Program-made: the position numbers and the translations under genes
Shown here: positions 2,326 through 10,987 of the stretch, one piece after another
Position numbering within the stretch: position 1 is the first letter of the stretch
Layout of the letters: the number at the start of each line of letters is the position of its first letter
From: Octopus sinensis
Taxonomy: Eukaryota
Length of the DNA: 10,987 nucleotides
Assembly: GCF_006345805.1 (NCBI RefSeq)
Contig: NW_021827185.1
Coordinates: 1 to 10,987, forward strand
Direction: 5' to 3'
Notes under the pieces: model-generated
Database searches by the model: none
Seen by the model: the letters and a program-made list of their open reading frames with translations, nothing else
Told to the model about the DNA's origin: nothing

Positions 2326-3233
2326 AGAAGAGAGCAACAAGATGTTGACAAAGCCCTTACCCATCAATGGTTAATGGCTTCTGGCTTAAAATCAGAAACA
2401 GAAGGGTTTATCATAGCAGCCCAAGATCAATGCCTACCTACAAGAAACTACCAAGCAAACATATTAAAGAACGGCAGGTGCCCAACATGTCGTGTATGTC
2501 GACAACAAAATGAAACCATTGATCATGTTGTCTCCAAGTGCAGTCTTCTTGCACCTACAGAGTATCTCAACAGGCATGATAGAGCAGCACAATATATTCA
2601 CTGGTAATTTGCAAAAACCTGGACCTGTCCCATGATAAAAAACTGGTAGGAACACAAACCACCTCCATTGCTTGAAAATGGTCACATCTCACTCCTCTGG
2701 AATTTCACCATTCAAACTGACAGAAGGATAGATGCGAATAGGCCAGACATTATATTGAAGGACTTCAGACAAAAATCATGCCTCCTTATTGATATGACTA
2801 TCCCAATCGATATAAATCTATCGGTCAAGACCTACCAAAAACCGAGGAAGTGTAAAGATCTTGAAATAGAAATTGGCAAATGTGGAACCTGAAAACTAAA
2901 ACAAGACCTGTTATCATAGGCGCCCTAGGAATGATAGCAAAAGGGGCTGATTTCTACCTAGCTCAGATACCAGGTAACCCCAAAATGGCAGAAATTCAAA
3001 AGATGGTGCTCATAGGAACTACCCATATCCAACGTAAAATAGTGTCTATATAATCTCAAATTTTAAAACAAACTCATAATTTTCTTATGTTTCCTTAAAC
3101 ATTCTCTAGAACAATACGTATAAAACCAAATATATGACACCCTAGGCATAACACCAACATGAACTTCTAACTTGTTGTTTCTGGGTGAGACTTGGAGCCA
3201 GCTTGTACAGATACAAAGCAAAAGTCAAACATA
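2326..3233 (+). mobile_element. 5'-truncated non-LTR retrotransposon of the R4/Dong clade (RLE type) with 3' UTR
   Basis: Encodes a CCHC zinc knuckle, RHD motif and PD..D restriction-like endonuclease. It starts right after (TAA)n/(CAA)n and ends in TAATAATAATA (3234-3244). Confidence 0.88.
2329..3053 (+). pseudogene. Disrupted C-terminus of an RLE retrotransposon ORF (zinc knuckle plus restriction-like endonuclease)
   Basis: Reconstructed as ...LKSETEGFIIAAQDQCLPTRNY...CRVCRQQNETIDHVVSKC...YLNRHD...LLWNFTIQTDRRIDANRPDIIL...LLIDMTIP...DLEIEIGK/MWNLKTKTRPVIIGALG...TTHIQRKIVSI*. Frameshifts near 2605, 2640 and 2879; in-frame TAG at 2647. Confidence 0.9.
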
Positions 3234-3244
3234 TAATAATAATA

Positions 3245-3436
3245 CTTTCCACTGTAGGAACAAGGTCTGAAATTTTGGGGGAGGCGTAAGTCGATGACAT
3301 CGACTCCAGTACTCAACTGGTACTTAATTTATTGACACGAAAGGATGAAAGACAAAGTCGACTCCGGCGGAATTTGAACTCAGAACCGTTAAGCATTTCG
3401 CCTGGCGTGCTAACGTTTCTGCCAGCTCTCCGTCTT
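3245..3436 (-). mobile_element. tRNA-derived SINE, tail type B, short deletion in the head
   Basis: Same B box (GGAATTTGAACTC) and GAAAGGATGAAAG core; the tail matches the 1056 copy. Confidence 0.9.
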
Positions 3437-3439
3437 AAA

Positions 3440-3550
3440 AGCAGCAACGTTAATAACAACTGTTATTGCAACAATAACAACTGTTATTGCAACAATAACA
3501 ACAGCAGCAGCAGCAGCAGCAGCAGAAACAGCAGCAGCAACAACAACAGT
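3440..3550. repeat. CAA/CAG-rich microsatellite with a duplicated 21-mer AATAACAACTGTTATTGCAAC
   Basis: Directly visible. Confidence 0.85.
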
Positions 3551-3756
3551 CTGTAAAAACCAAAAAGGTAAACATTAAAAACCAATCCCACAATTGGATA
3601 AAAATTTTCTTTGTTTCATTTCCTTTCTCTCCCCCACCGCGCTCTCTCTCTCCCTCTCTCTGCCTGGGTCTCTTTATTTTTCTGTCTTTCTCTGTGTCTC
3701 TTACCATATCATCAATCCCGTTAAGTGGTTAAATAGACTAGTTAAGTAAGAAACGC

Positions 3757-4293
3757 GGGAGTCATACGACAAGCGTTGTCATGGTGATTCTAATGAGAAA
3801 AGTAGGAAGTGACATCACAAACGTTCTGATGTTAAATCGTGTCAGAATCACTGGGAGTCAGATCACAACCGTTTCATCGTGACTCTTGTCAAAAATATTG
3901 GAAGTCACAACATAAAAACATATAAAAATCGAGTCGTGACCATTGTTAGGTCTACAAAGAGTTACGTCACAACGTTTTGTTATTATTCCTGTCCGAAACA
4001 CAGTGAGTTACCTTACAAACGTACATTCGACGACTCCTGTCAGAAACACCGAATCGACATCACAAGCGTTCTTTTGGTGACTCCTGTCAGAATCAATGGG
4101 AGTCACAGCAGAAAGGTTCACGTCATAAACTCTTGTCGGTAGGGTGGGGGAACTGTGACTTTTATCACAAATATTATTACGGTGACAGCTGTTAGAAAGA
4201 CTACGGGTCACACCAGAAACACTCTCATGGTGACTCCAATCAGAATCATCACATATGGGAGTCACATCACAAATGTTCTGACAACGACTCCCA
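3757..4293. repeat. Diverged ~48-bp tandem array (~11 units), each unit an imperfect palindrome
   Basis: Consensus about GGGAGTCACATCACAAACGTTCTGATGGTGACTCCTGTCAGAATCACT, recurring near 3757, 3805, 3853, 3900, 3958, 4003, 4050, 4098, 4204 and 4257. Confidence 0.8.
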
Positions 4294-4435
4294 GTTGATG
4301 TAGTACTGCATAAACTATGTCTGGGCAAATAAAAAATAAAATGTGACGGGATGGTCACAACTAGATTGTTTGCTTGATCAGACTGAACAAAATTAAACAT
4401 CAACTGCATTTGTTCTGTTTTCAGTTGTCTGTACC

Positions 4436-4965
4436 ATGGCACTATAATTCAATGTTACTATGACACGGTTGCCTGGACAATAAAATTCAATGTTGCAAGG
4501 ACATTATAATTCAATGTTGCTTGGACACTGTTACCAGGAAACGATAACTTAACGTTGCTAGGACATCCTTGATAGGACATTATCTTTCAATGTTTCTATG
4601 ACACCATCGTTTAATATAGCTATGACGGTGTAATTCAATGTCTCTAGAACACTGTTGCTAGGACATTATTTTTCAATGTTGCTGAGGACACATCATTCTT
4701 TGTAACTGCAACACTGCCATCTGGCTTAATTCAATGTTGCTACAACACTGTAACTGAATGTTGTCAGGACATTATTGGTAAGGTATTTTGCTAGGATACT
4801 ATCGAAGTTACTGTGATACTATACTCTGTAATGCTGTAACACTATCATTTTTATGATGTTATGACGCTATAAATTCAACGTTACTTGAAGATTATCTTTC
4901 AATTTTGCTACAACACTATCATTTAATGTTGCCAAGACTCAATCTTTCAATGCTGCTAGGAGACA
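4436..4965. repeat. Diverged minisatellite of interleaved 24-bp and 14-bp units
   Basis: Long unit AGGACATTATAATTCAATGTTGCT and short unit AGGACACTGTTGCT; more than 20 units in total. Confidence 0.85.
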
Positions 4966-5804
4966 CTCCTCCATTATAAGCTGGTGTTCCATTTGACGAT
5001 GGAATTAAAAAACATCTATAACCAATTTGGAGAATGGCGTTTTGACAGACAAAAGTCTGGTACAGCCCATGATCCGCCTTTACAGAAGTGTATACATCTA
5101 ACGATATACATCTTAGATATAAACTTATAATATTTTATTACAGCGGTCATAACACCAGCACTGTAGTCTGAATGGACTTGAAACGAATTAAAGTAAAATA
5201 AAGTGAACTGATATCAAATAAAATAAAAACGATATGAGGAATAGTAATGGTCGCTCAGTAAGATACAAGCAATGATAAGACGCGCGGATAATATTGCTAA
5301 TACGTTATATTCTATCCATTGGTTGCAGACGATGGCGGGAGCGCGACTGAGTTTGGGCGGTAAAACAATCTTCGAAAGATATAGATGTGTGTTTGTTTAG
5401 AGTATTTTGTGAATACACTCAGCCATGCGTATGGGTACTTGCAAATATGTACATACATATACACACATACACCACCCAATCACTCGGATGCGTGTGCACA
5501 CATGCGCATGCGTCATGCATATACACTCATACGCATAGGCATATGGACGCTATACGCTAACACATATGTATATACATTATACAATCATTTTATTTTTTTC
5601 TGTGAATACTCTTTCCTTATGTAAGCAGCTGCATGCGTGCGTGTGTGTGTGTGTGAAGTTATATACAAAAATAGCTGAACATTAAATTCAAGTATCGGTA
5701 GGGACTTTTTTTTTATCGAGTACTATATTAATTGTCTTTATATTTACAAGGAAAACGTTGACAGTAGCTCCGAAGTTGCAGCTTTACACAAACACTCCCC
5801 ACAC

Positions 5805-5875: not shown

Positions 5876-5879
<4 letters not shown>

Positions 5880-6040
5880 TAATCCAAACATGAAAACACA
5901 AAGAGAAAACACGACAACGCGAGGACGTGGAACAAATATAGTACTATTGGACGCTCAGGAAGGAAGGGAAGAAGGAGGGTTTATGTTTCGAGCGGAGCTC
6001 TTCGTCAGAAACATAGGAAAAGGAAAGATCAAGAGAAGGG
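5876..6040 (-). mobile_element. Putative Penelope-like element terminal fragment (pLTR)
   Basis: Contains a hammerhead-like motif, TTCCTGAGCG and a T-rich tail ending at (TA)n; same layout as the units at 6375-6683 and 10625-10987. Confidence 0.7.
5979..6012 (-). ncRNA. Minimal type I hammerhead ribozyme-like motif 1 (stem III and cleavage site degenerate)
   Basis: Minus strand GTTT-CTGACGA-A-GAGC-TCC-GCTC-GAAAC-AT-AAAC: CUGANGA and GAAA cores, stem II GAGC/GCUC, stem I GUUU/AAAC. Confidence 0.7.
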
Positions 6041-6044
6041 ATAT

Positions 6045-6372
6045 ACACACACCAACTAATACATACTAATACGTACTAATACATACTAGTACATACTAAT
6101 ACTTACACCAACCCTATACATACACACGTCCAGACCCCGCATACGCACTTATACTCTCTCACACACACACACACATACCTATACATACCAATACGTACTA
6201 ATACATACTAATACATACTAATACATACACCAACCCCATACATACGCATGTCCAGACCAATCTTACGCACTAATACTCCTCATACACACACCACACACAC
6301 ACACACACCCTTATACATACTAATACATACACCCACCCTATACATACACACATCCAACCCTCCCACGCACTT
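6045..6372. repeat. About 130-bp unit repeated ~2.5 times, with internal 10-bp TACTAATACA repeats and CA tracts
   Basis: Variants of CCCTATACATACACACGTCCAGACC...TACGCAC near 6112, 6235 and 6336. Confidence 0.8.
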
Positions 6373-6374
6373 TT

Positions 6375-6683
6375 AGCTGGTCCCTCAACCCATTTATCAC
6401 CCTATTTCTCCCCTTATTTCGCTCTCGCATCTCATGTTTGATCTTTGACCTCTGGCCGAAATCAGATCGCCATGTTGATTCGTTAGCTACTGCACGCATT
6501 TTTTTTTTCTCCTCCTTCTGTCTGTGTTTTTTTCTCTCTCTGTGTATCTTTCTGTTGAAGAGCGTAGGCTCGAAACGTTAAAGACTTGTTTTATTTATAT
6601 TTCCTGAGCGCCATACTAATACAATTGTTCGTTTGTTTTCCACCTGCCTTCGTCTTTTGTTTATTTTCATAAAGCTTCCCGTT
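6375..6683 (+). mobile_element. Putative Penelope-like element terminal fragment (pLTR)
   Basis: Pyrimidine tract, hammerhead-like motif, TTCCTGAGCG (6601-6610) and a T-rich tail ending at (TA)n. The 5' boundary is uncertain. Confidence 0.7.
6547..6584 (+). ncRNA. Minimal type I hammerhead ribozyme-like motif 2 (A6U core variant)
   Basis: TCTTT-CTGTTGA-A-GAGC-GTAG-GCTC-GAAAC-GTT-AAAGA: 5-bp stem I, 4-bp stem II, palindromic AACGTT in place of stem III, predicted GUU cleavage after 6579. Confidence 0.75.
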
Positions 6684-6730
6684 ATATATATATATATATA
6701 CATACACACATATATAAATATATTTATTAT
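6683..6730. repeat. (TA)n-rich microsatellite
   Basis: Directly visible. Confidence 0.9.
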
Positions 6731-6899
6731 AATAAGGGCTAGGCAAAAGAATTTGCTTCACCACACACCGAACTTTAGAAATAGCCGCCAAAGAATCTAG
6801 TTATTTCTTTACTGTAAGAAAACACTCCCAGACATATATACTCAAACAACAATCACGTAGGCAGAGAAAGAAATAACGAATTCACCCAGAATTTGATTA

Positions 6900-6984
6900 A
6901 CTGGGACGCGTTTCGAAATTAGATAGATATGAAAAATGCAAGAAACACATTTCCATTCTAATCACTTTTCTCTTCAAGCACAGT
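6900..6984 (-). ncRNA. Hammerhead ribozyme-like motif 3 with long stem II
   Basis: Minus strand ACTGTG-CTTGAAGA-[GAA..ATTAGA-ATGGAAATG..CATTTTTCAT..TCTAAT-TTC]-GAAAC-GC-GTC-CCAGT. Palindromic ACGCGT at stem III, GUC triplet, imperfect stem I. Confidence 0.6.
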
Positions 6985-7222
6985 ATTTCAATATATTCTA
7001 ATTGGTAGCACTGAAAGAACTGAACATACCTATCTAACTCCGTAACATCAGACAAATTATATCCATGACCAGTATCGCCGAATTCAAAACATGCGAATGA
7101 GGTCCCGCATTCTCCCCCGTCCACCCACGTATGTTGTCAAGCAAAAATTCTACAGAAAAAAACTGTAGTTTATTATCAGGGAGAGAATTGTATTGTCAAT
7201 AATAATAATAAAGGTCATAACT

Positions 7223-8907: not shown

Positions 8908-9410
8908 TGGTACATTTGGTACCTAAGGGACAACGGTATAAACAATCGCGAGCTGGCAGAATCGTTAGCACGTCGGGCGAAATGCTTAGCGGTATTTCGT
9001 CTGCCGTTACGTTGTGAGTTCAAATTCCGCCGAGGTCAACTTTGCCTTTCATCCTTTCGGGGTCGATAAATTAAGTACCAGTTATGCACTGGGGTCGATG
9101 TAATCGACTTAATACCTATGTCTGTCCATGTTTGTCCCCTCTATGTTTAGCCTCTTGTGGGTAATAAAAAAATAGATATAAACAATCGCACCATCATATG
9201 GCGCATTTTAGTTGAAGCAACTGCATATATTGGACCGGTAACAAGATGTAGTCTGAGCGTAATCCAAGCACTGCACATCCTGTCTGCAACTAACACCCCA
9301 AACTCAAGAGAGTTGACCCTTGACTCCTTGCTCACATGCGGAAAAATTCAGTTTAAAATATTTAAACATACTCTTCCCCGCAGACGAACTCCATCTACAT
9401 ATAGAACAGT
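8908..9410 (+). pseudogene. C-terminal fragment of a second type of Penelope-like GIY-YIG endonuclease, split by a SINE
   Basis: After removing the 240-bp insert the frame reads WYIWYLRDNGINNRTIIWRILVEATAYIGPVTRCSLSVIQALHILSATNTPNSRELT, then (+1 frameshift) PCSHAEKFSLKY. This fits the YIWxLK..I.W.IL..A.Y...CxLC..E...I..LNxRxE...CRH..KF pattern as I recall it. Confidence 0.7.
8948..9176 (+). mobile_element. tRNA-derived SINE (tail type A) with target-site duplication
   Basis: A box TGGCAGAATCG (8954), B box GTTCAAATTCC (9018), core CTTTGCCTTTCATCCTTTCGGGGTCGATAAATTAAGTACCAG; flanked by TATAAACAATCGC at 8937-8949 and 9177-9189. Confidence 0.95.
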
Positions 9411-9892: not shown

Positions 9893-10624
9893 GTTATATC
9901 TACTTTACATGAAGTATTACAACCATACGTTCACTTTCAAGTCTTTCTCTGATTATCTCTCTTGTTATTATTGCTATCATCTGATATTGTATCCTCATAT
10001 AATCTCCCCATTTGATTTTTTACTTTTGATATTCCTCGCTTTCTTTTGCCCAATCTTAATTTACTTATTTGACTTGTATTTTATCTAAATTTCTTTTTTA
10101 GTCTTTAAATCCCTTCCGTTTTACTACATTTTTTTAATGTTTTCCCCGTTTTTTCTGTTTTTCTTTTATAATCATTATAATTTTTATGAACTCTTAAACA
10201 ATATCTGTACATTCTCATGTTCCCCGTTATCTTTTCATAATTTTTTTTCAGATTTTTCTAATCATTTTTCCCAATATATTTTTTCAACATTTTTTCATCT
10301 TTTTTCTTATAATGTTCCTTATAATTTTATTTATATTCCCACCATTAGTTGTCCACTCCCCCACACCATTTTGACTTCATTCTTATCTTATTCTATTTAT
10401 GACTATTTGTTAAGGCTTTGTATTAATGACCAATCCTCGAAAATGACCCCATTTATTATGTTTTCATATCCTTCAATAATTTTCAAAACTTTATTCATAC
10501 CCCTCTCAATTTTCACGTGTCCCCAAAATTTTCTTGTATTGTTATATATTTTGCCAATTATTCTCCTATTTAGGCCATTATTCTGCTGCTATCAAGCTTG
10601 GCTGTCATGCTATCGTATATATAT

Positions 10625-10987
10625 GGTGCAAGAATTAGAAAACAACATGAAGACGACGTAAAGAAAATTACAAAAGAACCAGAGTGTTTTAGATTTACGC
10701 TCAGGAAAATAGAATAGAAAGAAAAGTTTTTAACGTTTCGAGCATACGCTCTTCTACAGAAAGAAAAGACGAAGAAAGAAGAACAAGCGTGTCTCAATTA
10801 GAGAGTCACTGCATGCTGAAATGACCGGAAGAGGAAGGATTTGCTAGTGTTGTGAGTGACAAGGCGTACTTTTGGAAACCTGGCATATGTGTGTGTGAGT
10901 AAAAGCGTGTGTCTGTATAAAGATGATGTGTGCATGTATATCTTTCTGCTTATGCACGTGTATACGTGTGTATGTACGAGCGCGTGT
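10625..10987 (-). mobile_element. Putative Penelope-like element terminal fragment (pLTR), may extend beyond the window
   Basis: Hammerhead-like motif, TTCCTGAGCG (10698-10707, minus strand) and a T-rich tail ending at the short TA run 10616-10624. Confidence 0.65.
10727..10764 (-). ncRNA. Minimal type I hammerhead ribozyme-like motif 4 (A6U core variant)
   Basis: Minus strand TCTTT-CTGTAGA-A-GAGC-GTAT-GCTC-GAAAC-GTT-AAAAA; the same fold as 6547-6584 with one stem I mismatch. Confidence 0.72.

Follow-up and report, generated by a model that had tools for sequence, protein, structure and literature searches.

In the 10,987 nucleotides of Octopus sinensis DNA analysed here (contig NW_021827185.1, referred to as the window) the same ten-nucleotide word, TTCCTGAGCG, follows three hammerhead-like ribozyme motifs, and the question is whether this word acts on the ribozymes or is there for something else. 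The initial annotation of the window had proposed that it pairs with the ribozyme's own GCUCGAA(A) and so works as an anti-hammerhead switch. In a scan of the window the word was found exactly where it had been placed, at 5952-5961 (minus strand), 6601-6610 (plus strand) and 10698-10707 (minus strand), in each case downstream of a hammerhead-like motif, and the complementarity to GCUCGAA(A) can be drawn in each of the three copies. The spacing of 21 to 24 nt which had been given holds for the second copy (21 nt from the predicted cleavage triplet) and the third (24 nt), the first having 20 nt. With one mismatch allowed the window contains 4 matches, where 0.21 are expected and a number reached in 0 of 200 shuffles, a test which overstates the surprise since the three copies are repeats related by descent. 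Good alignment between the copies, designated A, B and C, is limited to the ribozyme and the 10-mer.

Copy B (6047-6693, plus strand) is by alignment a 5'-truncated 3' end (pLTR) of family I of a Neptune-type Penelope-like retroelement (PLE) and over 657 nt shares 93% identity with the 3' terminus of a near full-length element contained in L049. Its minimal type I hammerhead-like motif, assigned from sequence and alignment to 6547-6584 (plus strand), consists of stem I UCUUU/AAAGA, the core CUGUUGA with U at position 6, an extra A, stem II GAGC-GUAG-GCUC, GAAAC and the triplet GUU. The 10-mer runs into a conserved tail element, GAGCG-N-TAATA (6606-6621, plus strand), about 76 nt before the junction with a (TA)n microsatellite (6682-6700, plus strand), which is the presumed start of reverse transcription; at this position tandem copies go on into the body of the element with TTATATATTA. 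Head-to-head with copy B lies copy A (5876-6042, minus strand), a short 3' fragment matching family II copies, with a minimal hammerhead at 5978-6013 (minus strand) which has the intact core CUGACGA, stem II GAGC-UCC-GCUC, a decayed triplet AUA, and ACAU in place of the ACGU palindrome of helix III. Copy C (10622-10790, minus strand, limits approximate) is a divergent copy with a CUGU core, matched by the family I profile at 10766-10683 with 61.7 bits; its hammerhead-like motif (10727-10764, minus strand) has the core CUGUAGA, again with U at position 6, and stem II GAGC-GUAU-GCUC. The three minimal hammerheads of the initial annotation are thus present as motifs, with the qualification that copies B (6552-6579) and C (10732-10759) read CUGU-N-GA with U replacing the conserved A6 and that helix III is altered in copy A. 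Rfam detected no hammerhead in the window at E values up to 1, and single-strand folds were no better than those of shuffles (z 0.6, -0.7 and -1.4).

The elements behind these fragments are abundant. In the 2.72 Gb genome GAAGAGCNNNNGCTCGAAAC has 21,889 exact matches (control 1), and exact hammerhead-like cores number more than 31,000, made up of 18,641 CTGTNGA and 12,941 CYGANGA cores. The PLE copies end in (TA)n at the 3' side and are truncated at the 5' side. In L049 two hammerhead-carrying pLTRs (2261-2824 and 6643-7196), 96% identical to each other, enclose frameshifted ORF pieces with DKG, YIDD, a CX4CX2C linker (CSRPRCRTC) and GIY-YIG; the latter was found by Pfam with an E value of 5e-4 and 20.6 bits, just below the cut-off of 22.6, and these frameshifted pieces gave no Pfam RT match. 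In L211, L212 and L215, homology to RT/EN is found upstream of the family II copies, and the ORFs of families I and II are about 69% identical at the DNA level. The regions upstream of copies from two further lineages, G1 and G2, yielded no RT match in 18 of 20 cases and a single weak match in each of the other two. Neptune-type PLEs are described as having RT, linker, GIY-YIG and pLTRs, and the octopus elements resemble this clade in the DKG RT, the CX2-5CxxC linker (which also occurs in Nematis), the C-terminal GIY-YIG, the partial-tandem pLTRs, the (TA)n targets and the 5'-truncated copies (PMC8557442). The host fits a Neptune-type PLE, an assignment made by element features, and the PLE origin suggested for the window copies is borne out by the parent element in L049 with its RT, GIY-YIG and two pLTRs.

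A non-LTR retrozyme, that is, short non-coding tandem units with a hammerhead, was considered as host and rejected, the copies being dispersed 3' fragments of coding elements. Separately, the tail-to-body junction was seen to recur at a spacing of about 480-510 nt at two places (G000:C8:39642773-39644231 and G000:C5:121298334-121299378), which suggests short, retrozyme-like tandem arrays of the pLTR region. Head-to-head PLE neighbours within 1.5 kb of each other belong to different families in five of six cases (such as 5876-6693 of the window, L048:7095-7880 and L127:1440-2170) and tandem neighbours in 5 of 18, which fits with the same (TA)n targets having been used repeatedly; two head-to-head junctions inspected for a shared insertion event have TA repeats or other sequence between the copies.

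The ribozyme fits the minimal type I hammerhead described for PLEs (PMC4209133), with stems I and II and a palindromic helix III, and differs from that description in a stem II of 4 bp and in the U6 of family I. The U at position 6 was found in all 30 sampled family I copies (one of them flank-derived) and defines the 18,641 exact cores of the genome; at position 7 the subfamilies vary freely (T 12, C 8, A 7, G 3; n=30). The canonical core CUGANGA is accordingly departed from at position 6 in family I and in window copies B and C; all 30 family II copies, which were selected for it, have CUGANGA, GAAA and an NUH triplet. Stems I and II are kept in family I despite U6, and stem I reaches at least 4 bp in 19 of 27 copies in family I and 14 of 29 in family II. 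Slow cleavage is described for a natural A6C variant, which agrees with earlier mutagenesis of position 6 (PMC3088659), and by extension from C to U the U6 copies may cleave poorly as well. Either the family I ribozyme cleaves with help or its fold is kept for another use. When 30 of 151 matches to the tail-to-body (tandem) junction were followed, 28 read through the hammerhead, one started 2 nt past the triplet and one inside the tail; a pile-up of 5' ends at the cleavage site, hinted at by L209, was therefore rejected, with one case among these 30 of 151.

For the conservation of the tail, 150 copies were selected on the ribozyme alone: the first 30 GAAGAGCNNNNGCTCGAAAC matches, the first 30 CYGANGA matches, and 90 others from the first 100 listed among 466 matches with a stem II not starting with GA. 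Their tails formed 53 clusters, 42 of which were single-copy, and the aligned groups comprised families I (36 copies) and II (33) and lineages G1 (14), G2 (14), G3 (15) and G4 (3), with 35 copies ungrouped; five members of G1 and four of G2 were assigned by eye, a step that biases these two groups towards having the motif. Among the ribozyme-selected copies the exact 10-mer was present in 16 of 30 in family I and 20 of 30 in family II, and in 0 of 13 in G1 and 0 of 14 in G2. Its TTCCT half is conserved in neither G1 nor G2; the conserved portion is its 3' half together with a TAATA that follows 4-5 nt later. The majority tails of families I and II, G1 and G2 share just two purine-rich 5-mers, AGCGT and TAATA, which stand in the same order, 4-5 nt apart, in all four lineages. 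Such a pair was found in 0 of 5,000 shuffles, a test which ignores the descent of the copies, and one shared purine-rich 5-mer alone in 160 of 2,000. The longest word common to the tails of families I and II (11 nt), which was the best pairwise result, was reached by 18 of 300 shuffles and is not significant. Within the families the advantage of the 10-mer over the 15 nt that follow it is only modest (decile means of 8.5 versus 7.7 in family I and 8.9 versus 8.1 in family II). The claim that the word is conserved beyond its neighbours consequently stands between lineages and is only slightly true within families I and II. The motif is absent from lineages G3 (n=15) and G4 (n=3). As judged from these alignments, the 3' tail of the PLE carries a conserved AGCGY-N4-5-TAATA element, of which the 10-mer forms the 5' part.

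This element lies downstream of the minimal hammerhead and upstream of the (TA)n junction, and has been kept in four lineages with diverged tails and stem II. From AGCG to the junction the median distance is 76 nt in family I (n=20) and 77 nt in family II (n=25), window copies A, B and C having 80, 76 and 77 nt. In the Poseidon element of the anole, reverse transcription starts internally in the tail of the RNA, and a template from +20 to +172 of the ORF, 3' of the start of the hammerhead, was needed; its authors hypothesise a protein-binding motif within this interval (PMC11167929). The Poseidon hammerhead requires protein for cleavage, and its catalytic mutants show normal insertion (PMC11167929). 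As the octopus motif lies in the interval matching the Poseidon template and 76 or 77 nt before (TA)n, a recognition element is the explanation favoured here, and the element may well be read as sequence by the PLE RT-endonuclease, positioning reverse transcription about 76 nt downstream. This possibility had been named in the initial annotation as the alternative to a switch. The PLE protein would bind the uncleaved pLTR RNA at the tail element, or the same sequence in DNA, and would nick the (TA)n target; cDNA would start at the internal AU-rich site, and copying back through the hammerhead would leave 5'-truncated copies like the three of the window. The match of the tail to GCUC would then be incidental: as the outer G and C of stem II are fixed, the two inner letters would agree by chance in about one case in 16 by our estimate.

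The likeness to Poseidon extends to 3' ends of copies at a fixed distance downstream of the hammerhead, to an uncut ribozyme which is read through, and to an AT-rich target (PMC11167929), though Poseidon belongs to another clade and its binding site is not mapped to a motif. In Poseidon the region lies in the ORF and reverse transcription starts in an AC-rich stem-loop (PMC11167929), whereas in the octopus elements it belongs to the 5' UTR, the tails have no predicted stem-loop in common, and the start is a match to the (TA)n target. The spacing argument is weakened by the finding that the distance of the motif to the 3' end is no tighter than that to the hammerhead (standard deviations of 3.2 versus 3.1 in family I and 6.3 versus 2.4 in family II) and that it is scattered from 36 to 117 nt in G1 and G2, where it is undefined in 12 of 27 copies. 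The offset of the motif from the hammerhead ranges from 21 to 34 nt across lineages. The purpose of the PLE hammerhead and the choice of an internal start site by the protein are named as open questions (PMC8557442, PMC11167929), and a word kept across lineages about 76 nt from the 3' end offers a ready target for mutagenesis. As a ribozyme switch the finding would be weak, its setting being an ordinary high-copy retroelement. No description of the tail motif, the U6 core or these elements was found in the literature searched, which covered few subscription journals.

One rival reading applies to family II, where A6 is intact. A hairpin limited to this lineage, in which the tail, already present, would pair as CGCUCG:UGAGCG and open stem II, would keep the RNA uncut for reverse transcription, a need from which family I would be spared by U6; we regard this as rather unlikely. 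In the folding predictions, which concern a marginal 4-bp stem II that is unstable with or without the tail, the alternative helix has a median probability of 0.51 in family II (30 of 30 copies folded) and exceeds stem II in 16 of 30 copies, compared with medians of 0.009 in family I (28 of 30 folded) and 0 in G1 (12 of 13) and G2 (14 of 14), where some placements of the motif are doubtful. When the 10-mer was deleted in silico, stem II gained more than 0.2 in 13 of 30 copies of family II and in 0 of 28 of family I (control deletion 3 and 2, respectively), so that the effect on folding expected by the initial annotation appears in family II and not in family I. RNAalifold likewise places the alternative helix, in the 6-bp register, in the consensus of family II only, and the nucleotide preceding GCUC is a pairing partner for the last G in 29 of 30 family II as against 2 of 30 family I copies. 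For the window copies the predicted probabilities of the alternative helix and of stem II are 0.51 and 0.17 in copy A, 0.64 and 0.05 in copy C, and 0.025 and 0.71 in copy B; in copies A and C the alternative helix becomes more probable with the emergence of the 10-mer. Against the hairpin, two-sided compensation is lacking, the tail predates or outlasts the complementary stem in G1 and G2, the pyrimidine before the stem is also found in these two lineages, and the minimal stem II is predicted to be unstable regardless of the tail. Cleavage by minimal hammerheads, moreover, is poor to begin with and depends on dimers or protein (PMC4209133, PMC11167929), so a brake may be unnecessary.

A combined scenario, to which we give little credence, is that families I and II, the two most abundant PLE lineages, muted their hammerheads separately, the one by U6 with the fold kept, the other by a stem II which lets the older tail fold back. 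Were this so, muting would favour spread, as uncut RNA is the substrate of insertion, and what would maintain the hammerhead fold is its use as a scaffold for protein binding instead of as a catalyst. That a U6-core lineage numbers more than 18,000 copies suggests that spread may not depend on efficient cleavage.

The element might also have no function of its own and be a purine island surviving by shared ancestry in low-complexity pyrimidine tails which diverge faster and slip. All copies are homologous, the flanks are rich in U and C and prone to slippage, and neighbouring blocks are about equally well kept within families, with pairwise longest-word tests that are not significant. The word pair, however, has been kept despite the divergence of the family I and II ORFs and two changed pairs in stem II, and its absence from all 5,000 shuffles points the same way, although shuffles include no model of descent. 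We consider an element without function fairly improbable.

Considerably less probable is a splicing signal, with CUAAU as branch point followed by a pyrimidine tract, serving a 5' UTR intron of the tandem unit that follows. CTAAT agrees with the yUnAy branch-point consensus and is present in families I, G1 and G2, and the tails are rich in pyrimidines, with AG absent in 14 of 25 and 22 of 26 copies; the Penelope pLTR, which retains a 5' UTR intron, provides a precedent (PMC2377424). On the other side, no acceptor is conserved, an AG at about +54 being limited to one subfamily of family I, the majority of family II reads CCAATAAT, and AGCG would be left unexplained. Contigs of four sequencing runs presumed to be RNA contained no GT..AG joint, which speaks neither for nor against splicing; such contigs cannot show ends.

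A general anti-hammerhead switch in all copies, in the originally proposed 8-bp register with a CU bulge, is very unlikely. The pairing can be drawn in all three window copies and is predicted in A and C, but the hairpin is predicted as a feature of family II only, and no base-pairing partner common to families I and II, G1 and G2 emerged from RNAalifold and pairing checks. The tail also does not covary with stem II. Stem II itself covaries between lineages (GAGC/GCTC, GGAC/GTCC and GGAT/ATCC), and the GGAC/GUCC of G1 and G2 amounts to two compensated pairs relative to GAGC/GCUC; their tails nevertheless still read AAGCG and GAGCG, and single G2 copies have GGGCG and GGACG (one in ten each). 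In the whole genome the uncompensated T(G/A)AGCGT comes within 15-45 nt after (G/A)TCCGAAACGT in 54 cases (control 2) and the compensated T(G/A)GACGT in 3 cases (control 13). Two of the 54 contain a nested GCTC core and are to be discounted, and some of the others, whose stems were not seen, are probably point mutants of family I or II. Among 49 copies ending in CC-GAAAC with a CGTCAANCTAA tail, many of them family I mutants, GGG precedes CGTCAA in one and GGA in none. A two-sided compensatory change of stem II and tail was thus found nowhere in the sampled lineages or the genome-wide counts, and the covariation by which the initial annotation had proposed to judge the switch turned out against it. 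The TTCCT half is moreover not conserved in G1 and G2. Alternative folds silence viroid and satellite hammerheads, and the octopus elements resemble these in that a nearby complementary segment could open the core; they differ in the lack of covariation and in an alternative predicted in one lineage only. Regulation of hammerheads through dimers has also been described (PMC4209133). Equally remote is a DPE-like core-promoter element of the pLTR acting in DNA, for which Penelope with its internal TATA-less promoter and downstream element RGACGTGY is a precedent (PMC2377424), as the tail word is unlike RGACGTGY and its offset from the hammerhead varies between lineages.

Two further candidates were rejected. 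The tail GCGU standing in for the helix III palindrome in cis had median probabilities of 0.000-0.028 (0.95 in one G1 copy), and a second cleavage site at the tail GUY would have a stem I of at least 4 bp in only 1 of 76 copies. A metagenome scan gave one match, in an apparent bacterial gene without a hammerhead core, which was taken as chance.

Several other features of the window were noted. Upstream of the hammerhead, the pLTR of copy B contains imperfect tandem repeats of ACTAATACAT at 6055-6330 (plus strand), which include the TAATA half and are also present in L049. The CPEB3 (HDV-like) ribozyme model of Rfam matches 4087-4166 (plus strand) with 30.1 bits and an E value of 9e-5, below the gathering score of 35, and the match lies within a degenerate array of hairpin-like units of 40-50 nt from about 3750 to 4290. 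Broken ORF pieces with a CCHC-like motif and an RPDII motif occupy 2340-3230 (plus strand) and presumably resemble the C-terminal region of non-LTR retrotransposons that encode a restriction-like endonuclease. A degenerate minisatellite with 24- and 38-nt spacing extends over 4422-4970 (plus strand), and copies of a SINE-like repeat, 66-91% alike, are found at 740-1270 and 3255-3440 (plus strand) and at 8948-9174 (minus strand).
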